Of a stretch of 64,000 nt of DNA, positions 4,301 through 47,801 are shown in pieces. The stretch is from Felixounavirus LF82P5, in sequence record OZ035800.1, one strand, 5' to 3'. Both the position numbers and the translations under genes were made by a program. The first letter of the stretch is position 1. Every line of letters begins with the position of its first letter. The notes beneath the pieces were generated by a model. The model was not told where the DNA came from, ran no database searches, and worked only from the letters and a program-made list of their open reading frames with translations.

Positions 4301-4600
4301 TTAATCTGCCAACCTTAAATTGAAATTAACACCAAATTTTTCACATACTTCCAACATATACTCAAGGGAGACGTTACCAGTGAGATGGATTATGTTGGAT
4401 ACACGAGCCTGAGAGATACCACAAATTTTAGCAACTTGCTCTTGAGAAAGTCCTCTGGATTTAATCTCTCTCTTAAAACGATGTGCAACGAAGTCTCTCA
4501 TTTCGTCTACATCCATTGGACAAATATAACTCTCCATTTCAGCCTCTCTGTCAGCCTCCCAATCATCTTGTGGAGCATAAGGGTCAAAAACCTCATTCAT
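4301..4600 (-). CDS. helix-turn-helix DNA-binding protein (XRE-like)
   Basis: HTH signature LSQEQVAKICGISQARVSNI; start moved to internal ATG with GGAAG Shine-Dalgarno (track start 4630 is TTG). Confidence 0.5.
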   Translation of the reverse strand: MNEVFDPYAPQDDWEADREAEMESYICPMDVDEMRDFVAHRFKREIKSRGLSQEQVAKICGISQARVSNIIHLTGNVSLEYMLEVCEKFGVNFNLRLAD

Positions 4601-4805
4601 CTTTCTTCTTCCGTTTGCGTGAAGTGTCAATCAATGAATCTATGTTTGTAGCCCTAACCTTTTCACGTTCATCATTGAGATAATCATCAAGAGCCTTCTC
4701 AATCTGTGAATCATCTTGACAGATGACTGTAAAGACTGTAAAGCCATCTGTATCATCAATTATATTACCATAACCGCTTCTGGGATGTAACTTTTTAAGA
4801 GCCAT
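4593..4805 (-). CDS. hypothetical protein
   Basis: 70-aa ORF with ATG start and basic C-terminus. Confidence 0.4.
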   Translation of the reverse strand: MALKKLHPRSGYGNIIDDTDGFTVFTVICQDDSQIEKALDDYLNDEREKVRATNIDSLIDTSRKRKKKDE

Positions 4806-5190: not shown

Positions 5191-5389
5191 AATGACCTCA
5201 AAGTTATATTAAATTTTGTATTACATTGAGTATAAAAATAAGCTATAACACCTGACTTGTCAACAGATTTTATAGCTTATTTGGCAGATTTTTTATAAGG
5301 CTACTGCCATCCTTCCATACTTTACCGAACATCACCCTACTGAACCCGACCCTACCTCACCCGACCCAACCGAACCGTACCGAGCACAG

Positions 5390-5468
5390 CCTTATTAAAA
5401 GACCCTCTTTAAAGACCTTTTAAAAAGGTAAGTCTCATTTTAATGTAGCTGAGACTAACTACCCATAC
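5390..5468. repeat. repeated intergenic element, copy A
   Basis: About 79 bp: CCTTATTAAAAGACCCTCTTTAAAGACCTTTTAAAAAGG plus hairpin AGTCTCA-12 nt-TGAGACT; near-identical copy at 6788-6866. Confidence 0.6.
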
Positions 5469-5527
5469 CTCACCTTACCACGCCGAACAGCACCGGACTA
5501 TACCAGACCATGCCGAACATTGCCGAG

Positions 5528-5566
5528 CCTTATTAAAAGACCCTCTTTAAAGACCTTTTAAAAAGG
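5528..5566. repeat. repeated intergenic element, partial copy B
   Basis: 39-bp quasi-palindromic core identical to the start of copy A. Confidence 0.55.
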
Positions 5567-5585
5567 AGCCTCCGAAGAGGCTACC
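5555..5585 (-). terminator. rho-independent terminator (minus strand)
   Basis: On the minus strand AGCCTC-UUCG-GAGGCT hairpin followed by a U5 run, immediately downstream of the 5594..6034 stop. Confidence 0.55.
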
Positions 5586-5593
5586 TAGTCAAC

Positions 5594-6034
5594 TTAGAAA
5601 GGTTTTCTACGTTGCTTGTTAATGTTAGCTTTCATAGCAGCTAAATGGTTTTGCTGTTCAATTAGTCGTGAACGTTCTTGATGGCTAAGTACCATAGTGT
5701 TCACATTCTCAATCGCTTGAGTGGCTTGCTTTAAAGCACGACCAATCTTACCAGACATTTTACGTTTTGCAATAGTTGCTTGATGCTTAGGTTCAACCAC
5801 ACGATAACCAACACCCATTGAAGCAACCAGATAAATCTTCTCTTCTTTAAGAAGCTTCTCAATAAACTTCTCAAGTCGATTTAAGCGTGTAAGCGCATAA
5901 GCCTTCATTTCATCTTCGTACTTAACAATGTCACCTTGATAAGTTGGCTTCACAATACCTAAGAAGGTGTCCATCTCAGAATGTGATACAGTGTCACCGT
6001 AACTAAACTTTGCTGCTAATGCTTTTGTATTCAT
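5594..6034 (-). CDS. hypothetical protein
   Basis: 146-aa ORF with ATG start; flanked by repeat elements. Confidence 0.5.
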   Translation of the reverse strand: MNTKALAAKFSYGDTVSHSEMDTFLGIVKPTYQGDIVKYEDEMKAYALTRLNRLEKFIEKLLKEEKIYLVASMGVGYRVVEPKHQATIAKRKMSGKIGRALKQATQAIENVNTMVLSHQERSRLIEQQNHLAAMKANINKQRRKPF

Positions 6035-12599: not shown

Positions 12600-12658
12600 T
12601 TTTACTCCCTCTAAAATCATTAACCTCATACATTACTGCAAAAAATTATAAAAAGCAA

Positions 12659-12683
12659 GTTGACAATGTACTTGACAAGGTGT
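12659..12683 (+). promoter_or_regulatory. conserved tandem-TTGACA module (candidate early promoter or operator)
   Basis: GTTGACAATGTACTTGACAAGGTGT; 24 of 25 nt identical to 56049-56073; both sit in divergent intergenic regions. Confidence 0.45.
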
Positions 12684-12857
12684 TAATCTTTGCGAAGTGG
12701 GTTTTTACTTAAAAGGTTACTTAACAGTTTAACTATACAGATACTTTAAAACTCTTAAAAGATTATTTAATAGCTTTTTAAAAAGCTTTAAAGTATAACG
12801 TATAGAATACGTTAAGATAAAAGATTAAAACTTAATAGTTACTTAAAAGAGGCTTAC

Positions 12858-13280
12858 ATGCAGAAAATGTTTGTTCACCCAGACATAGCTGACTTTGTTA
12901 GAGCTTTGCAGAAGTTGGAAGAACTTGACATTGCTGCTCAACGGGAATATGCTCACCATCACAGGAGAATGGTTGATATACAACATGAAATAGAGTTGTC
13001 TGAAGACTATGAAGATGACTTAAAATGCTCTGTATTTGAGCATATGAAAGATGTTGCTACAGCGAGACGTAAAGCTAAAGACACAGTTGCTTTACTAGAT
13101 TCTCTTAAAAAGAGGTTGCAAAGTGGTACAGACCTGTGTAATCTAGCATCACTGATTAACGATGTTGAAACTTCTTGGGATAGGCACTATTATCCACGTT
13201 CTGAAAAGACACTTGACTTTTCTTCATCCGAAAACTTAAAATGTTCTAGAAAGAAACTTAACCAACTGAGAGAGAAATAA
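12858..13280 (+). CDS. hypothetical protein
   Basis: 140-aa ORF, first gene of the plus-strand block. Confidence 0.5.
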   Translation: MQKMFVHPDIADFVRALQKLEELDIAAQREYAHHHRRMVDIQHEIELSEDYEDDLKCSVFEHMKDVATARRKAKDTVALLDSLKKRLQSGTDLCNLASLINDVETSWDRHYYPRSEKTLDFSSSENLKCSRKKLNQLREK

Positions 13281-38330: not shown

Positions 38331-38345
38331 TAAGTAATTTCTTAA

Positions 38346-38368
38346 AAGGCTGCTTCGGCGGCCTTTTT
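38346..38368 (+). terminator. rho-independent terminator
   Basis: GGCTGC-TTCG-GCGGCC hairpin followed by TTTTTT. Confidence 0.55.
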
Positions 38369-38370
38369 TA

Positions 38371-38398
38371 TTTGTATTTTGTGCAGAGTGCTGTATAA
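38371..38398 (+). promoter_or_regulatory. sigma70-like promoter
   Basis: Perfect -10 TATAAT with a weak -35; the spacer contains the TTGTGCAG motif also found in the 42540-42719 repeats. Confidence 0.4.
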
Positions 38399-38430
38399 TT
38401 GTTGTCACGATAAACTAAACAGGAGAACCA

Positions 38431-40138: not shown

Positions 40139-40160
40139 AGGCTCCTTCGGGAGCCTTTTT
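40139..40160 (+). terminator. rho-independent terminator
   Basis: AGGCTCC-TTCG-GGAGCCT hairpin followed by TTTTT. Confidence 0.65.
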
Positions 40161-40179
40161 CATTTTAGGAGATTGTTAA

Positions 40180-40958: not shown

Positions 40959-41285
40959 ATGCAGATTAATGGAAGAGACTTTGTAGCCGTTTACTATGAG
41001 AAAGGTAAAGAAGTTGGCGTAGCACAAGTATCTTACGGCAATGGTAAGTGGCTATATGGAACAATCGCAGTAGTAGGAACAAGAAGTGATACAAAAACCT
41101 TTAAAGATTGTGTTGACCTTCTTGAAGAATCCATCCAGAATCATTGGTGTCTGATATGGATGACTGATAACGAAGTGATGGAGCGTTTCAAAAAGATTGA
41201 TATCAACATTGACAGTATTGAGCATGTTGATTTATATGAACTAACTGAGAAGGTAAACTATGAAAGTAATACTAGCCAGAGATAA
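40959..41285 (+). CDS. hypothetical protein
   Basis: 108-aa ORF. Confidence 0.4.
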   Translation: MQINGRDFVAVYYEKGKEVGVAQVSYGNGKWLYGTIAVVGTRSDTKTFKDCVDLLEESIQNHWCLIWMTDNEVMERFKKIDINIDSIEHVDLYELTEKVNYESNTSQR

Positions 41286-41487
41286 AAAGACACGAAAACT
41301 TATAAGGTCAGCAGTATTCATTGGACGAAATGAGGTCATCCCATTTACAGCAAATGATGTGATAGCTTACAGGAAGAACTTAGTATTCACTGACTGCTTA
41401 CGTGGCTTCATCTCTGAACCATTGGAAGACTTTAAAAGTCGTTGTGGTAAAGGTATCATCATTCAAGAGGCAATTATTCATGGCTGA
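41260..41487 (+). CDS. hypothetical protein
   Basis: 75-aa ORF. Confidence 0.35.
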   Translation: MKVILARDKKTRKLIRSAVFIGRNEVIPFTANDVIAYRKNLVFTDCLRGFISEPLEDFKSRCGKGIIIQEAIIHG

Positions 41488-41680
41488 CTTCTGTAAAGAC
41501 TGTTCTATCGAAATGTTCGGACGTGATACAGGTGACTTAAAAGGTCTTATCACTGAAGATGATTTTAAAGCTGGTTATGCAATGCCAGTAATCTGTGAAG
41601 GTTGTGGGTGCATCTGGGTAGACCATGAGGGGCAACGTGTAAAACCTTCAGAAGATAAAGAATCTTGGGAGAGATGCTAA
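41480..41680 (+). CDS. small zinc-binding protein
   Basis: Track ORF trimmed to internal ATG; cysteine pairs CKDC...CEGCGC. Confidence 0.35.
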   Translation: MADFCKDCSIEMFGRDTGDLKGLITEDDFKAGYAMPVICEGCGCIWVDHEGQRVKPSEDKESWERC

Positions 41681-42466
41681 ATGGGTATTGTAAAAATCAT
41701 CAATGGTGATATCTTTGCTGCATTTGATAAAGGTAAGTTTGACATCATTGGTCATGGTTGTAACTGCATGAACCTAATGGGCGCAGGTATCGCTGACAAG
41801 ATTTCTAAACTTTACCCAAAAGCATATGAGACCGATACAGAAGTTTATCTCTATGCAGGTGGTATAGGTCACAAACCCTGTGAGAATTTACTAGGTAATT
41901 TCTCTGTAGCACGCTTAAAACAAGGTCGTATAGCTAACCTTTACACTCAGCTTAAGACTGGTAAAGATGCCCGATACAGTGCTTTAGAGTCATCTTTGAA
42001 ACAGCTTAACAGATACTGTGAAGTTAATCAGTTGAAGAAAGTTGGTTTACCTATGATTGGTGCAGGTATCGGTGGACTTGACCCTCAAGCCATCACAGTT
42101 ATCATCAATCAGGTGATGAAGAGTGTAGATGTTTATCTGTATGTCTATGAAGGCGAGATGTACCACAAGTTACGCTCAGGTTGGAAGAACTACTGTGAAC
42201 CAGAATACTTTGCAGGTGTAGCAGTGTTCACAGATAACGCAGTTACCCTCTTCAGACGAAGAAAAGGTAAGATACATCAAAGTAACCCTCCGGTTGAAAA
42301 GATGTCTCTAAGTAACGCTCTAGTTACCCACCTGTCAAAGAGCAATCACAGAATTGCTGTAACATTTGGTAGTGATGCAGAAGCTTATATCTATGCAAGA
42401 ACTGATGAGGATATCGAGGCAATCTTCTCTTCACCAGAAGTTACCTTCTTAGACGCAAAGAACTAA
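41681..42466 (+). CDS. macro-domain protein (putative ADP-ribose-binding/hydrolase)
   Basis: N-terminal GDI...DII.HGCNCMNLMGAGIA and GLPMIGAGIGGL resemble macro-domain signatures (GDIT...VNAAN.LLGGGGV; FPAISTGVYG). Confidence 0.45.
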   Translation: MGIVKIINGDIFAAFDKGKFDIIGHGCNCMNLMGAGIADKISKLYPKAYETDTEVYLYAGGIGHKPCENLLGNFSVARLKQGRIANLYTQLKTGKDARYSALESSLKQLNRYCEVNQLKKVGLPMIGAGIGGLDPQAITVIINQVMKSVDVYLYVYEGEMYHKLRSGWKNYCEPEYFAGVAVFTDNAVTLFRRRKGKIHQSNPPVEKMSLSNALVTHLSKSNHRIAVTFGSDAEAYIYARTDEDIEAIFSSPEVTFLDAKN

Positions 42467-42539
42467 GAAACTCTGTAGGATATTCACAATAGCCTAAGCC
42501 TTTCTTATCTGGTAAATTTTTCAGGTAAGGAGGGCTTTT

Positions 42540-42561
42540 TCATTTTAGAATTGTGCAGGTA
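42540..42561 (+). repeat. iteron-like direct repeat R1
   Basis: TCATTTTAGAATTGTGCAGGTA; identical to R4. Confidence 0.6.
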
Positions 42562-42612
42562 GAGTTCTGTAGAGAAATCTGTAGAGAGAATTTTGAACTC
42601 CAAAGAGAAAAT

Positions 42613-42634
42613 TCATTTTCAAACTGTGCAGGTA
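42613..42634 (+). repeat. iteron-like direct repeat R2
   Basis: TCATTTTCAAACTGTGCAGGTA. Confidence 0.6.
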
Positions 42635-42651
42635 ATCTCCAAAGAGCTTTT

Positions 42652-42673
42652 TCATTTTCAAAACGTGCAGACC
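42652..42673 (+). repeat. iteron-like direct repeat R3
   Basis: TCATTTTCAAAACGTGCAGACC. Confidence 0.55.
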
Positions 42674-42696
42674 CCGCTCAGGTCGGGCAAGAAAAA

Positions 42697-42718
42697 TCAT
42701 TTTAGAATTGTGCAGGTA
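42697..42718 (+). repeat. iteron-like direct repeat R4
   Basis: TCATTTTAGAATTGTGCAGGTA. Confidence 0.6.
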
Positions 42719-42733
42719 GGTTTTTATAGACAG

Positions 42734-42772
42734 CCAGCCCAACCCCTCTCCCCCTCTTACTCCCCCTCTCCC
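42734..42772 (+). other. polypyrimidine (C-rich) tract
   Basis: CCAGCCCAACCCCTCTCCCCCTCTTACTCCCCCTCTCCCC, strongly out of character for a roughly 39% GC genome. Confidence 0.6.
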
Positions 42773-42894
42773 CAAAAGTCAAGAGAAAAATTTGTAGCGG
42801 ATTGAAAAATAATTCTTGATTTGCGTTCTGTTTTGTGGTAGTCGTGCGCACCCGTTTCATTACAGTTTTGCCAAAAATATTTTTAAAATTTTTA

Positions 42895-42986
42895 TTGACT
42901 CTTTGAACGTGGTTATCTAATATTTACATCAACGGGGAGGGAATGACCTTCCCCACTAAATAAAATCCTAAACTGGAGATTCAAAA
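42895..42986 (+). promoter_or_regulatory. promoter-hairpin-RBS cassette, copy 1
   Basis: TTGACT-17 nt-TAATAT, then GGGGAGGGAATGACCTTCCCC hairpin, then ...CCTAAACTGGAGATTCAAAA-ATG. Confidence 0.6.
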
Positions 42987-43175
42987 ATGGCATCAAGAAA
43001 AATTAAAGTTGGCGATGAGGTTAACATTAAGCACGAATACTCTTACAAAATGCTAACTATACGCTCTTATAAGGTTTATCAGGTGGAAGCTATCCACAAA
43101 GATAATACTTTTTCCTTAAAAGGGTATAGCGAACGTTTCCCTGCTGAACTCTTTGAGAAATGGAGCGCGAAATAA
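42987..43175 (+). CDS. hypothetical small protein
   Basis: 62-aa ORF driven by cassette copy 1. Confidence 0.5.
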   Translation: MASRKIKVGDEVNIKHEYSYKMLTIRSYKVYQVEAIHKDNTFSLKGYSERFPAELFEKWSAK

Positions 43176-43381
43176 TGCTTTACAGTCGCGAATTGATGGT
43201 TACAACTAACGTTAACACAAAGGCAAAACGTTTTTACATGCAAATCTGTGGCGTATGGTCCAGAATATCAGAAGCTGACTATTGCAACTATGTAGAAACA
43301 GCTATAAACTCTAATTGCTACCTTACAAGAAATACTAAAAAATTTACGAGACAGACAGCAATTTACTACTACGATAAATAA
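43175..43381 (+). CDS. hypothetical small protein
   Basis: Start at ATG overlapping the upstream stop (TAATG); 68 aa. Confidence 0.4.
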   Translation: MLYSRELMVTTNVNTKAKRFYMQICGVWSRISEADYCNYVETAINSNCYLTRNTKKFTRQTAIYYYDK

Positions 43382-43395
43382 AAAGTACTTTACAA

Positions 43396-43424
43396 GGGGC
43401 TTATAGTTCGATAAAGTAAGCCCC
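43396..43424 (+). other. intergenic hairpin upstream of conserved leader
   Basis: GGGGCTTA-13 nt-TAAGCCCC then the conserved leader ...CCTTAAACTAGGAGATTCAAAA-ATG; no T run. Confidence 0.4.
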
Positions 43425-43467
43425 AGATAAAGAGCTTTACACAATCCTTAAACTAGGAGATTCAAAA

Positions 43468-44010
43468 ATGAAATGCTATCACGGAACTACTCAAGAAAAT
43501 TTCCTCAACCTGATTAATAACGGTGATAAACCATCAGGCGCATGGAATTGTTCGGATATGGACGGCAATTTTTACGTGTATCCAGAAAATAAAATCTATG
43601 GCGACGATGAGGAAGAAATAGCATCAGAGGGCATTCAGCAAGCTCTAGGCAATGCCACTATCACCGCAGCTTTTCAGATGAAGACTCAAAATATTGTTAT
43701 CTTAGAACTCGATATTCCAGAGGATGAGCTAAATGATGATTATTCTTGTGATAATATGTCGAGTGTAGCAAGTTTTACAGAGTACTTTGATGTAAATTGG
43801 ATTAAAAAGGTCTATACAACAGAGTTTAACGCTATGTATTCACCTTTTTGTCTTCCTTCATTGGATAACCCAAATTTAAACTATCTTGATGAGTCTCTGG
43901 AGCTTCTTGCTAAAAGTGTTCAACAGTCGGACAGTATTCAGGTTTATTGTGACATCATGGATACACTGACAGGAAACATTGCAGAAGAGGATTTAAAGAG
44001 CTTTTTCTAA
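43468..44010 (+). CDS. hypothetical protein
   Basis: 180-aa acidic ORF with conserved leader and RBS. Confidence 0.5.
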   Translation: MKCYHGTTQENFLNLINNGDKPSGAWNCSDMDGNFYVYPENKIYGDDEEEIASEGIQQALGNATITAAFQMKTQNIVILELDIPEDELNDDYSCDNMSSVASFTEYFDVNWIKKVYTTEFNAMYSPFCLPSLDNPNLNYLDESLELLAKSVQQSDSIQVYCDIMDTLTGNIAEEDLKSFF

Positions 44011-44041
44011 AAACCTATGCAATCACCTTATAAACACTAAT

Positions 44042-44062
44042 CAGCCCCTTGTAGGGGCTTTT
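44042..44062 (+). terminator. hairpin (weak terminator)
   Basis: AGCCCC-TTGTA-GGGGCT followed by TTT. Confidence 0.35.
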
Positions 44063-44076
44063 AGAGGGCTTAAATC

Positions 44077-44310
44077 ATGCTTACAACCATTTACCTCATC
44101 CTTTCCATCTGTAATGGTCATTCATGTGATTTTAAAGGGCTTGAAGAGTTTACAGGAAGTAAAGAAAATGCTATTCAAGTTTGCCAGATAGCAAGACAAG
44201 ACTATCCCGCTAGTGATGATATACAATGTTACTTTAAGACAGAAGATGAAGACGGTATCTATTTTGACAGCGTAGATGGTCAGTATGAAATTATCATTGA
44301 AAAAGACTAG
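44077..44310 (+). CDS. hypothetical small protein
   Basis: 77-aa ORF. Confidence 0.45.
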   Translation: MLTTIYLILSICNGHSCDFKGLEEFTGSKENAIQVCQIARQDYPASDDIQCYFKTEDEDGIYFDSVDGQYEIIIEKD

Positions 44311-44401
44311 ACAAGCCTGATAAAAATCTGTAAATTGTCAATCAACGGGGAGGGAATGACCTTCCCCACTAAGTACAATCCTTAAACTAGGAGATTCAAA
44401 A
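44308..44401 (+). promoter_or_regulatory. promoter-hairpin-RBS cassette, copy 2
   Basis: TAGACA-17 nt-TAAATT, the same GGGGAGGGAATGACCTTCCCC hairpin, AGGAG RBS; -35 overlaps the upstream stop codon. Confidence 0.55.
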
Positions 44402-44743
44402 ATGGCTTATGTAACCGTAATTACCGATAAAGAAAATTCATCTTGGTCAACTCAAGTAAGTGATAAGATGTCACCTATGCAGTGCCTAAAATACTTTGAA
44501 CAGTGGAACAAAGGCGAGGACACAAGCCCCTTTCAAGTGATGCAGATTATCCATGTAGATAACGAAGGGAATAAAACGGTTTTAAATAGTGAGTACTACG
44601 CAAGCCGTTTTGAAACGAGAAGTAAAACAATGAAGCTTTTACGTGAATCCGGTTATGCCCATATCGCCGCGTTAATCTGGGATGACCTGCTAAAAAACCA
44701 ACGTATCAGCTATGTAAAACCTGAAAAAATATTCATCAGTTAA
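44402..44743 (+). CDS. hypothetical protein
   Basis: 113-aa ORF driven by cassette copy 2. Confidence 0.5.
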   Translation: MAYVTVITDKENSSWSTQVSDKMSPMQCLKYFEQWNKGEDTSPFQVMQIIHVDNEGNKTVLNSEYYASRFETRSKTMKLLRESGYAHIAALIWDDLLKNQRISYVKPEKIFIS

Positions 44744-44774
44744 TCAATAACTTACAAAAAACTTTTAAAAAAAT

Positions 44775-44796
44775 GTTGACAATACCCCTTGACATT
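44775..44796 (+). promoter_or_regulatory. tandem TTGACA module (third copy, divergent)
   Basis: GTTGACAATACCCCTTGACATT; same tandem -35-like architecture as 12659 and 56049. Confidence 0.35.
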
Positions 44797-44872
44797 GGTA
44801 ACTTTGTTCGAGGGGGTTTATCTAAAAGGGATTCACTTAAAAGATTCTTTATAGATAAGCTCAAAAAATTAC

Positions 44873-44966
44873 TTGCAATCAGCTATCAAAACAAGTAAAT
44901 TACTAATCAACGGGGAGGGAATGAACTTCCCCACTAAACAAAGCCCTTAAACTAGGAGATTCTAAA
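44873..44966 (+). promoter_or_regulatory. promoter-hairpin-RBS cassette, copy 3
   Basis: TTGCAA-17 nt-TAAATT, hairpin GGGGAGGGAATGAACTTCCCC, AGGAG RBS. Confidence 0.55.
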
Positions 44967-45497
44967 ATGAACAAGTTCAAAGCTATCAACTACATCCGTT
45001 CAAATGCTGTAATGTCTAAGCCTGTAAAAGATACATACGAATTTCGTTGTAATGGGGTACACTTTGCAACCATCACTAAGTCAGAAAACGGGGCTTATTA
45101 TGTACATCGTCGTAATGTTGCAACCGTTGTAGTCTCTCACTTTATGCAAGCTGTAGCGGAATTATTACCGTTATTCTTAGAGATTTACTTAAATGAGTGT
45201 AAAAACGTTCACAACCACGTTAAAAACCTTTTAAACGGTTATAAAATGGCTTATGAACGCTCTATCAAGTCACTAAACAAGTTTTACAATGCACCTGCAA
45301 ATACTGTTTCAATGGCTTATGATGTAAACGGTGAGTTAGTTAGTCTCTTTAAAGTGGAAGAGATTAAACTGTATAATTTACGTCCTAGTGGTTACTCTAA
45401 GACTCTTGGTGAAGGTTTAACGTTCAATATCAAGAACTTAGAAAAAACTTTAAAAGATATTGAAAAAGATATTGACGAGACACTTAAAAGTCTGTAA
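44967..45497 (+). CDS. hypothetical protein
   Basis: 176-aa ORF driven by cassette copy 3. Confidence 0.5.
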   Translation: MNKFKAINYIRSNAVMSKPVKDTYEFRCNGVHFATITKSENGAYYVHRRNVATVVVSHFMQAVAELLPLFLEIYLNECKNVHNHVKNLLNGYKMAYERSIKSLNKFYNAPANTVSMAYDVNGELVSLFKVEEIKLYNLRPSGYSKTLGEGLTFNIKNLEKTLKDIEKDIDETLKSL

Positions 45498-45563
45498 ATT
45501 GTCAATCAACGGGGAGGGAATGACCTTCCCCACTAAATAAAGTCCTAAACTGGAGTTATCAAG
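45472..45563 (+). promoter_or_regulatory. promoter-hairpin-RBS cassette, copy 4
   Basis: TTGACG-17 nt-TAAATT where TAA is the stop codon of the upstream gene; same hairpin; GGAG RBS. Confidence 0.6.
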
Positions 45564-45827
45564 ATGGAAAACGTAGAATTAACCACACTTTTACAAATTG
45601 CAACCGACAAAGAAAACGTAGCTTTATTTCACCGCATCGAAAGTGATTTGTTCAATGGTGAAATCATCAAAGAGTCTTACGAGGTTGTTGGATTCAAAGA
45701 TGGTAAAACATTTGGATTCTTTGACCTCGAAAAAGGCAACGCTGTTACAAAATATGATGTTTTATCTTGTGAGATTCTTACAAAATACAACGAAAAAAGG
45801 CTTGCAACATACGCTAATATGCAGTAA
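45564..45827 (+). CDS. hypothetical small protein
   Basis: 87-aa ORF driven by cassette copy 4. Confidence 0.5.
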   Translation: MENVELTTLLQIATDKENVALFHRIESDLFNGEIIKESYEVVGFKDGKTFGFFDLEKGNAVTKYDVLSCEILTKYNEKRLATYANMQ

Positions 45828-45893
45828 ATTACTAATCAACGGGAGGCGATAACCTCCCCACTAAATAAAACCCTTAAACTAGGAGATTCAAAA
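45802..45893 (+). promoter_or_regulatory. promoter-hairpin-RBS cassette, copy 5
   Basis: TTGCAA-17 nt-TAAATT (TAA is the upstream stop), variant hairpin GGGAGGCGATAACCTCCCC, AGGAG RBS. Confidence 0.55.
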
Positions 45894-46142
45894 ATGGCAA
45901 CTATCCGCGCTACTGTTAACGAGTTCGGTTTTTCCTCTCTGGATGTTAAATTTGACATTGCAGGCACTGATAACGCCTTTGAAATGGTGAAAGGTCTTAT
46001 CAGTCAGACCATCAAAGACTATAATCCTTCTGATGAGTTCTGGAAAGAAACAAAACAGGAAGTTCTCAAAGAGGGTTATTCTTATCACTATTGGGGTGAA
46101 AAAATTGTCTCTCTGTACTACGACAAAGAAGGCACTAACTAA
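45894..46142 (+). CDS. hypothetical small protein
   Basis: 82-aa ORF driven by cassette copy 5. Confidence 0.5.
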   Translation: MATIRATVNEFGFSSLDVKFDIAGTDNAFEMVKGLISQTIKDYNPSDEFWKETKQEVLKEGYSYHYWGEKIVSLYYDKEGTN

Positions 46143-46182
46143 ACGCCGCAGCGGGGCTAAATAGCCCCAGATACCTTTATAC

Positions 46183-46204
46183 AGCCCCTCATAGGGGCTT
46201 TTTT
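46183..46204 (+). terminator. rho-independent terminator
   Basis: AGCCCC-TCAT-AGGGGCT followed by TTTTTT; preceded by a second hairpin GGGGCT-AAAT-AGCCCC. Confidence 0.7.
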
Positions 46205-46205
46205 A

Positions 46206-47801
46206 CGTCTATCCAATCCTTATACAATCCCTTTCCCTTTCCTTTCCAGAATCTTATCAGACCTTAAAAACAATAACTCTATAGTCTACTCTATAACCCT
46301 TTATCAAATCAACTTAAATATAAGCCCATAACCCGAAAGGGAAGGGCAACCATTAAAACGCTCTATAAAGCTCTATAACAGCCTTATCAACCTAACTTAA
46401 GGGATTGCATTAACCTATCTTAAAAAGCTCTTTACAGGGCTTTATAGAGCCTTAAAAGAATCTTATAAGGGTGTAAGCTTTATCATCTCGTTAGCTATCT
46501 TGTGAATAACTAAAAAGGGCTATGAGATAGGAATCTATCGAATCCTATTGATAGTGTCTAAAAAGTATGTTATAGGGGCTATAAAGTTACTTTGAAGTAG
46601 CTTAAAAGTTACGTAAATGCTAGCCCCCTTAACATTCTCTTAACAAATTCTTAACAATCCCTACATAGTTATGCTTGTTAGCAACTTGTTAGCCCCTTGT
46701 TAAATCTCTGTTAAGACCACGTAAAAGCCTTGTAAGAGCCTTTGACATAGCCTTAAAAGCTCCTGTAAAGCCCTATAAAGAGCTTTCTTCATAGTTGGGG
46801 TGTAATTACTAGGAAGAGCCTTAAAAGAGCTTACAAGGAGCTATAGAGAGCTTTTAAGAGGTATGTTTAAAGAGTCACTAAGAGGGAAAGGGAACGATAA
46901 GAAAAGAGATAGTGACCATGTTAATAGCTTGTTAAAAAGATTAAATACTTGTTAGAAACTTGTTAATTATCTTAACAAAATAACTCTTTAAAATTAACTT
47001 GTTAGCTCTTGTTAGTCATCTGTTAAGCCTCTGTAAAGACTATTCAGCAACTGTTAAGAAACTGTTACAGCCTTGTTAGTTCTGTTAAGAATCTGTTAAG
47101 ACCTTTGAAGAGCTGTTAAGAAGATGTGAGAACTGTTAAGAGATTGTTAAGGATATTTTAAAATTTTGCAAAGTACTTGTAAGGGAGCTGTTAAGGGCTA
47201 CCAAGCAGATATACATCTTCTACAGATATTTTTGAGTTCCTTCAAAGACCCTAAAAAATGACTTGACAGTCCTATTTTATAAAAATTTTAAGATTCTGAA
47301 TAATTACCTATACAGTCTTTTAAAAATACAGGTAGAAACAGGTTTATAAGATACCTTGTTAGTACCGTGTTAGACCTTGTGAGATAAGGTCTGTAAAGAT
47401 ATTCCTGTTAAGTTTGTTAAAACAGTCTATATAGAGGCTTAGTAATACCTAGTGAACACCTATAGAGAGTGTCATAGCTTACATAGAGATTAAGAGGTGT
47501 ATAGGAGCTTCTAAGAGTGTGTAGAGAGATGGTTAAGATGATTGTATAGGTTGTTTAGAAGGCTTGTTAGAAGAGTGTTTAGATGGCTATTTAGAAGGGC
47601 TATACAGAGGGCTATTAAGACCACTAGATAGTTGCTAAGATACTATATAGTACTATATAACTATATAGAGAGTAAGATTAAGAAGGTTGTTAAGAAGGGT
47701 AGATATTTTGTTCACATATGATGGTGACCCAGAGGTTGGGACAACCGATAAAATTTTATAAAAATTAAAAAGCCCCCAATTAAGGAGGCTCTTAAGATAT
47801 T
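46206..47801. other. 1.6-kb repeat-dense region with no ORF of 60 codons or more
   Basis: No track ORF on either strand; dense short direct and inverted repeats (CTGTTAAG, CTTGTTAG, AGCCTTAAAAG, CTATAAAGAGC, TTTAGAAGG, ACTATATA). Confidence 0.6.

Follow-up and report, generated by a model that had tools for sequence, protein, structure and literature searches.

Why should a Felix O1-type phage keep four copies of a short direct repeat in a gap between two genes? We addressed this question in a stretch of 64,000 nucleotides from Felixounavirus LF82P5 (OZ035800.1), hereafter the window, in which an initial annotation had pointed out four iteron-like repeats followed by a C-rich tract. Felix O1, a classical typing phage of Salmonella, has relatives that are widely put forward as agents of therapy and biocontrol; the temporal regulation of its transcription and its replication origin have been stated to be unknown (PMC3185647). 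The Felix O1 genome paper listed only repeats of at least 24 bp and does not mention those treated here (PMC3185647), and no description of them in Felix O1-type phages was found in the literature searched. The repeats are a real, previously undescribed, subfamily-wide cis-element, and their presence in every related phage examined makes it most likely that they form an array of binding sites for a sequence-specific DNA-binding protein.

Sequence and Spacing of the Repeats

The four sites (R1 to R4) lie on the plus strand and share the two-part, 18-base consensus TCATTTT-N6-GTGCAG (Table 1). Their positions and start-to-start distances (73, 39, and 45 bp), as annotated initially, were reproduced by a motif scan. 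The site sequences are TCATTTTAGAATTGTGCAG (42540 and again 42697), TCATTTTCAAACTGTGCAG (42613), and TCATTTTCAAAACGTGCAG (42652), and the identity noticed between R1 and R4 extends over 24 nucleotides (42540–42563 and 42697–42720). The unit length of 22 bp assigned at first is too short, since a run of five A or T residues stands ahead of each of the four sites and CTCCAAAGAG stands ahead of R2 and R3. The direct repeat that had been noted between R1 and R2 is CTGTAGAGA, and the gap containing the array is gene-free over 520 bp (42467–42986, between genes for proteins of 261 and 62 residues), as was also described.

Seven matches to the motif with three or fewer mismatches were found in the window against 0.33 expected by chance, and the four array sites were the only matches with zero or one mismatch. 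Nor did the first 21 kb of the LF82P5 record contain a further site of the latter quality; this segment was treated as the remainder of the genome beyond the window, with the exact offset of the window in the record not established. In the whole genome of the Erwinia phage phiEa21-4 (Kolesnikvirus), the exact matches to the motif were the four array sites only.

Conservation of the Array

We compared the gap with related phages to define which parts of it are maintained. A BLAST search with the gap matched 288 phage records, and the alignment to the Erwinia Kolesnikviruses was limited to the stretch from R2 to R4 (query 146–248 against phiEa21-4, 73%). A pattern scan of IMG/VR gave 30 Ounavirinae-type loci and one unrelated locus (L016), which was rejected as a relative because it belongs to an unrelated phage with a two-copy repeat arisen by chance. 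Arrays of three to five sites were syntenic in four lineages, with offsets that were genus-specific but fixed: 0/73/112/157 in Felixounavirus (0/75/120 in a few phages with three sites, L014 and L037), 0/75/116/161 in Mooglevirus/Suspvirus-type contigs, and 0/37/74/113 in Kolesnikvirus. Five sites were present in L024, an uncultured 88-kb distant relative that has about 45–60% protein identity to the window (tblastx matches) and no alignable DNA beyond short Tk.4 matches to T4-type phages. The array always stood directly 3' of the terminator of a Tk.4-like gene and 5' of the first promoter of a variable early module. Felix O1 itself carries both the array and the C-rich tract.

The conservation within the array was uneven. 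Across 22 aligned sequences from Felixounavirus, Mooglevirus, and Suspvirus, the mean column entropy was 0.19 in TCATTTT and 0.12 in GTGCAG (0.16 in the cores); N6 had 0.55 and the spacers had 0.52 (permutation p < 5e-5). The half-sites are therefore three- to fourfold less variable than N6 and the spacers, and this pattern constitutes a bipartite footprint with a free center of 6 nucleotides. No copy of the array was found in Enterobacterales genomes, E. coli genomes, plasmids, or satellites, and the matches in other taxa and in metagenomes outside the subfamily were unrelated regular tandem repeats.

Two contigs had unusual continuations. In L024 (reverse strand, 5349–5760), about 12 TTAACA units form an array of 150 bp behind the five sites, where Felix O1-type phages carry the C-rich tract and a conserved block. 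In L026, the sequence after the third site runs on into GC-rich DNA unrelated to the phage and is likely a chimeric assembly.

A Fifth Site at the Promoter after rIIB

The core TTGTGCAG had also been noticed in the spacer of a promoter at 38371–38398. It is present at 38379–38386 and turned out to belong to a complete fifth site, in which the motif is matched with two mismatches at 38368–38385. This site follows the rIIB terminator (38344–38367), begins in the terminator tail, and spans approximately positions −38 to −20 of the promoter after rIIB, that is, the −35 element and the spacer, the TTG of the −35 element being supplied by the motif itself. TTATTTG, GTGCAG, and TGTATAAT were conserved in Felixounavirus, in Mooglevirus-type loci, and in L039; N6 (TATTTT, AAAAAT, or TGATTT) and the five bases after GTGCAG (AGTGC, GTTAG, GATGA, or AATAG) varied, and the geometry GTGCAG-N5-TGTATAAT was kept between genera. 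No other promoter in the window has the same layout. To judge from these sequences, the fifth site is not a chance match, and its overlap with a promoter ties the motif to transcription initiation at least once.

Locus and Fixed Geometry Downstream of the Array

The window is a Felixounavirus genome, in which positions 41000–45000 are identical (100%) to LF82P5 and share 90–99% identity with numerous Felix O1-type phages of Escherichia and Salmonella. The gene to the left of the gap encodes a macro-domain protein annotated as "Tk.4" or "phosphatase", the gene for the 62-residue protein is the right neighbor, and every surrounding gene lies on the plus strand. The array marks the border between the conserved rIIA-rIIB-vs.1-pseT-Tk.4 operon and a fast-evolving right-terminal module of small early genes. 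The T tail of the terminator that closes the upstream operon, which is annotated as a terminator in relatives as well, continues into R1 and forms its T run. A second terminator (40139–40166) has the same tail as R1, TTTTTCATTTT, but no GTGCA; terminator tails of Felixounavirus LF82P5 usually look like the first half of the motif. Across 42000–47000 the GC skew declines from about +0.10 to approximately zero and the G+C content to 0.36, with the genes still all on the plus strand.

Two distances downstream of the array were kept among the relatives. The distance from the start of R4 to the start of a second conserved non-coding block was exactly 81 nucleotides in 30 of the 39 distinct relatives, with either of two alleles lying between them, and the distance from the start of R4 to the −35 element of the first early promoter was 198–199 nucleotides in nearly all Felixounaviruses. 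This geometry was kept while the intervening sequence changed, which argues for an architectural unit that consists of the array, the block, and the promoter. The promoter is the nearest one downstream, 176–355 bp from the array sites, and is the first sigma-70 promoter of the right-terminal early module. It heads the first of five near-identical promoter/leader cassettes (42895–42986, 44308–44401, 44873–44966, 45472–45555, and 45802–45893), each of which precedes a small gene of that module and has the layout TTGAC/TTGCAA-N17-TAAATT, a ATCAACGGGGAGGGAATGACCTTCCCC hairpin, GGAG, and ATG.

Table 1. Positions of the repeats and of the features around them in the window.
Feature	Position	Strand	Description
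R1	42540–42561	+	TCATTTT-AGAATT-GTGCAG-GTA; TTTTT before it (42535–42539); orthologue in all Felixounavirus/Mooglevirus-type loci
R2	42613–42634	+	TCATTTT-CAAACT-GTGCAG-GTA; CTCCAAAGAG and AAAAT before it; absent from three-site variants
R3	42652–42673	+	TCATTTT-CAAAAC-GTGCAG-ACC; CTCCAAAGAG and CTTTT before it; near-invariant columns, among the best conserved sites
R4	42697–42718	+	TCATTTT-AGAATT-GTGCAG-GTA; GGCAAG and AAAAA before it; site and flank lie in the only segment aligned by BLAST with Erwinia Kolesnikviruses
Fifth, hybrid site	38368–38399	+	TTATTTG-TATTTT-GTGCAG, then AGTGC, then TGTATAAT
CTGTAGAGA, two copies	42567–42575, 42579–42587	+	In the long R1–R2 spacer; moderately conserved
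Intrinsic terminator hairpin of the upstream operon (rIIB to Tk.4-like gene)	42496–42537	+	17-pair stem, then TTTCATTTT
Allele region	42717–42777		Allele B in L009, L011, L012, L017, L019, L021, L022, L025, L029, L032, L034, and L035
C-rich, G-free tract (allele A)	42738–42773		36 nucleotides: 25 C, 8 T, 3 A
Second conserved non-coding block	42778–42823	+	GTCAAGAGAAAAATTTGTAGCGGATTGAAAAATAATTCTTGATTTG
Sigma-70-type promoter	42895–42923	+	TTGACT-17-TAATAT; first of five early cassettes; annotated promoter in phage ASO1A
5' leader	42928–42986	+	Hairpin GGGGAGGGAATGACCTTCCCC and ribosome-binding site; recurs at 44341, 44906, 45505, and 45835
Direct terminal repeat	46623–47205		Physical genome ends

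The C-rich Tract and Its Alternative Allele

The tract after R4 had been described as 39 nucleotides of pyrimidines. It is C-rich, as stated, but it is 36 nucleotides long and contains three A residues, and its pure pyrimidine runs are 16 and 14 nucleotides. Read directly from the sequence at 42743–42773, it is a perfect mirror repeat, CCCCTCTCCCCC-TCTTACT-CCCCCTCTCCCC, with two homopyrimidine arms of 12 nucleotides each. The minus strand has a canonical G-quadruplex motif of five G runs (four of 4–5 G and one of 3) with loops of 2–7 nucleotides. A pattern scan found two motifs of this type in the 64-kb window including that of the tract; the other (5335–5362) has its C runs on the plus strand and lies inside a minus-strand gene block. 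The formation of H-DNA or of a G-quadruplex by the tract is possible on the basis of these features.

The tract is not a constant companion of the repeats, as an unrelated segment of identical length takes its place in 12 of the 31 IMG/VR relatives. This allele B comprises about 50 nucleotides between R4 and the conserved block and is partly G-rich (GGTGGGTGCAGGTGGGGATGTCGCC...). We considered it as an inverted C tract, and this was rejected because no significant similarity was found in either orientation. Kolesnikvirus has only a short C-rich piece with three C runs. These results indicate that the tract, being replaced by an unrelated allele in about 40% of the relatives, is dispensable, and that H-DNA or a G-quadruplex cannot be essential to the array.

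Three independent assemblies break in or beside the tract. The contigs L013 and L020 (IMG/VR, sample 3300045988) stop inside it, L020 entering a Nextera adapter directly, and the Andreotti record (MN850610; L002 3267–3289) ends next to it with an inverted copy of the sequence 60 nucleotides upstream. The breaks are probably due to poor sequencing through DNA prone to form a G-quadruplex or i-motif, and assemblers should be aware of them.

Element Classes Ruled Out

We examined whether the repeats belong to a class of element other than protein-binding sites. Coding sequence was ruled out on either strand, since no three-base periodicity of substitutions was observed on either strand and the stop-free frames were not conserved among the relatives. 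The "hypothetical proteins" annotated here in some records are accordingly unsupported, and annotators should be warned, as such proteins are often called across the region. No conserved RNA fold was found over the repeats (consensus folding, z = −2.0 on the plus strand and −0.4 on the minus strand); within the region, only the terminator hairpin stands out as a significantly conserved helix (z = −4.4, reached only with the hairpin included), and the search of Rfam gave chance-level matches only. A structured RNA and a known RNA family were ruled out by these results.

An array of clustered regularly interspaced short palindromic repeats (CRISPR) was excluded because the repeats are non-identical and spaced by 39–73 bp, the orthologous "spacers" are conserved between phages, and there are no cas genes. 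The initial view of the repeats as iteron-like or operator sites rather than CRISPR thus holds in a general sense, in keeping with the bipartite footprint, the deep conservation, and the uniqueness of the array. Promoters within the repeats were likewise rejected. On the plus strand, no −10 element follows GTGCAG at the distance observed in the fifth site. On the minus strand, nAAAAT fails as a −10 element because the fifth site has C at −11, and TGCAC would lie at −22 to −18, outside the place of a −35 element.

Proposed Function of the Array

Our tentative preference is for an operator-like platform that may control and insulate the terminal early module and may act at the promoter after rIIB through the fifth site. 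One factor, either encoded by the phage or a host protein conserved in Enterobacterales, would bind all four repeats. The half-sites T(C/T)ATTT(T/C) and GTGCA(G/T), which are about one helical turn apart, would be contacted by a protein or a pair of proteins in two successive major grooves, and the factor would assemble cooperatively on the array, usually on four sites (three to five in relatives). Together with the block held at a fixed distance from it, the array would then be built into a nucleoprotein complex governing the first early promoter (42895) and shielding it from upstream transcription. The promoter after rIIB would be a direct target of this factor, either for repression or for MotA-type activation at about −30. 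Protein binding, the identity of the binder, and the direction of regulation are all matters that we infer from sequence. The half-sites are invariant across deeply diverged phages, which makes a conserved host protein a serious candidate, and the binder could accordingly be a hijacked host protein.

A more far-reaching version is rather doubtful in our estimation. In this version, the motif would be the recognition element of a temporal regulator that redirects the host RNA polymerase at the promoter after rIIB in the manner of MotA, and the array would silence or insulate the terminal host-takeover module or prime replication for a T7-like replisome without an RNA polymerase of its own.

Several observations weigh against a regulatory platform. 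The array sites overlap no promoter and have no −10 element at the corresponding distance, and the 176–355 bp to the nearest promoter is far for a classical operator. A scan of phiEa21-4 found no solitary promoter site in Kolesnikvirus, though the array is present there. No cognate regulator was found among the annotated and neighboring genes, and no DNA-binding domain was found in the neighboring gene products. The macro-domain protein, the vs.1-like protein, the 154-residue protein, and the small downstream proteins were each considered as the binder and rejected, since they have no DNA-binding domain and no relative in the PDB. The only annotated helix-turn-helix protein (4301–4630) has no annotated counterpart in phiEa21-4. 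In an informal comparison, the motif showed no convincing fit to the sites of IHF, Fis, DnaA, CRP, Fur, MarA/SoxS, NtrC, sigma-54, sigma-E, ArgR, or MetR, or to Type I restriction sites such as that of EcoKI (AAC-N6-GTGC).

Whichever function applies, a short, unique, and deeply conserved array with a copy embedded in a promoter provides a concrete handle on the regulation and replication of Felix O1-type phages.

Alternative Explanations

A replication origin is the main rival explanation for the array, though an unlikely one. The repeats would be iterons at which an initiator or a host factor opens the AT-rich DNA near the promoter at 42895 so that a T7-like primase-helicase can load, and the fifth site would mark an autoregulated promoter driving the operon with the initiator gene. 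Three to five direct, asymmetric, bipartite sites of 18–22 bp in a unique array are what is expected of iterons, and the additional site at a promoter recalls the autoregulation of Rep in iteron plasmids, as is generally known. The AT-rich segment 42855–42930, with the promoter adjacent, is among the top 0.3% least stable 60-bp segments; about eight other places in the window are, however, less stable. The GC skew falls at 42–43 kb without a change in gene orientation, a drop that can be explained equally by the different composition of the terminal early genes, and the cumulative GC-skew minimum is elsewhere, at about 12.6–12.7 kb beside the DNA polymerase gene. The spacings of 73/39/45, 75/41/45, and 37/37/39 are genus-specific and not helically phased. 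The products annotated in two PHROG-annotated relatives include no Rep-, O-, or DnaA-like initiator, the genes neighboring the array showed no DNA-binding or Rep domain, and the replication genes are T7-like (a family A polymerase and a gp4-like primase-helicase); to our knowledge, T7 requires no origin-binding initiator. Furthermore, no plasmid, satellite, or E. coli genome with the array was found. A leftward promoter that would produce a G-rich RNA across the tract, as in an R-loop origin, was sought by promoter scan and by eye, and none was found. The divergent intergenic region at 12630–12860 by the DNA polymerase gene contains the least stable DNA in the window, at the cumulative GC-skew minimum, and is by its sequence an alternative origin candidate.

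It is improbable that the repeats act at the level of RNA. In this case they would be U-rich signals for pausing, termination, or processing in transcripts that pass the terminator at 42496–42537, and the C-rich tract would be a Rho loading site at which such read-through is halted ahead of the early promoter. All sites are in gene orientation, R1 and the fifth site start in the U tails of intrinsic terminators, and the tail TTTTTCATTTT is shared by a further terminator of the window. Rho loading sites are C-rich and G-free, and the tract shares both properties; it is, however, swapped for the G-rich allele in about 40% of the relatives. The repeats show no conserved RNA structure, R2 to R4 have no hairpin, and in the fifth site the motif belongs to promoter DNA that lies 5' of the transcription start.

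A signal for DNA entry or packaging has very little to recommend it in our judgment. The array, some 4.5 kb from the right physical end, would mark the inner limit of the terminal early module and work like the injection-stop region of the first-step transfer in T5 or as an accessory site for end processing. Felixounaviruses have short direct terminal repeats. The repeat was determined to be 608 bp in UAB_Phi87 by Bal31 digestion and run-off sequencing (PMC4837284) and 581 bp in Pr103Blw by PhageTerm (PMC8303462). The Pr103Blw repeat aligns to 46623–47202 of the window, and several independent records start or end exactly there. The terminal repeat thus lies about 3.9 kb to the right of the array, which indicates that the repeats are not termini, and a genome terminus or a pac/cos site at the array was ruled out because the ends map to 46623–47205; the end of the Andreotti record (MN850610) inside the region is an inverted-duplication artefact and was rejected as a terminus. 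The array does stand exactly where the terminal small-gene module starts, 3.9 kb before the terminal repeat (an estimated 7.5 kb or so in Kolesnikvirus). Against an entry signal, it lies apart from the terminal repeat, the terminal genes are directed outward, and the fifth site in a promoter is left unexplained. The terminal repeat contains at least 20 copies of CTTGTTA(G/A) and CTGTTAAG as well as three TTAACA at its left edge, and these copies probably serve in the recognition of the ends for processing or packaging; units of the TTAACA type fill the Felixounavirus terminal repeat and may be compared with the TTAACA array of L024.

That the repeats are functionless remnants of a tandemly duplicated terminator-promoter cassette or of a decayed gene is hardly credible: R1 and the fifth site do share the layout of terminator tail, N6, and GTGCAG, and small open reading frames are annotated across the region in some records, but the half-sites are selectively kept while N6 and the spacers drift, the array persists in lineages without other DNA similarity, the open reading frames are not conserved, and no codon periodicity or other coding signal was found that would mark the repeats as a degraded coding sequence, an outcome which the initial annotation had envisaged.

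Comparison with Known Systems

The tract resembles H-DNA mirror repeats and G-quadruplex motifs in its mirror of 12 + 12 homopyrimidine nucleotides and its minus-strand G runs. It differs from such elements in that its structure-forming potential is not conserved, as allele B and the Kolesnikviruses without the tract illustrate.

The locus as a whole is similar to the T5 injection-stop region, which is also repeat-rich and non-coding and lies at the inner edge of a terminal early module in a genome with direct terminal repeats. The T5 region, however, is inside a 10-kb terminal repeat, its motifs are unrelated, and Felix O1-type phages are not known to inject their DNA in two steps.

In regards to iteron systems (RepE of F, pi of R6K, RepA of pPS10, RepA of P1, and the O sites of lambda), the repeats likewise occur in several direct copies of an asymmetric sequence of about 19–22 bp with two conserved halves, in a unique array by AT-rich DNA and a promoter, with an extra site at a promoter as in the autoregulation of Rep. 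Iterons are spaced by about two helical turns, whereas the spacing here is irregular (37–75 bp). No Rep- or O-type initiator and no DnaA boxes were found, and the replisome genes are T7-like.

The MotA box of T4 middle promoters lies at about −30 and is combined with an extended −10 element. The fifth site is similarly centered at about −29, with a weak −35 element and TG directly before TATAAT. The T4 origins oriF and oriG contain MotA-type promoters, and the same motif also occurs here in an array without a promoter, which could be an origin. Unlike the 9-bp MotA box, the motif is bipartite and 18 bp long, and the array sites have no −10 element. The annotations of the relatives examined list no MotA or AsiA homologue, a direct search not having been made.

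The array may also be compared with the p4/p6 switch of phi29 and with the O1–O3 operators of Mu and the OR/OL operators of lambda. Their sites are inverted repeats over the promoters that they regulate, whereas the sites described here are direct, bipartite, and 176–355 bp upstream. As in those systems, however, a single intergenic region of a lytic phage holds four sites rich in A/T tracts, and their fixed geometry suggests a higher-order nucleoprotein complex that governs the early promoters.

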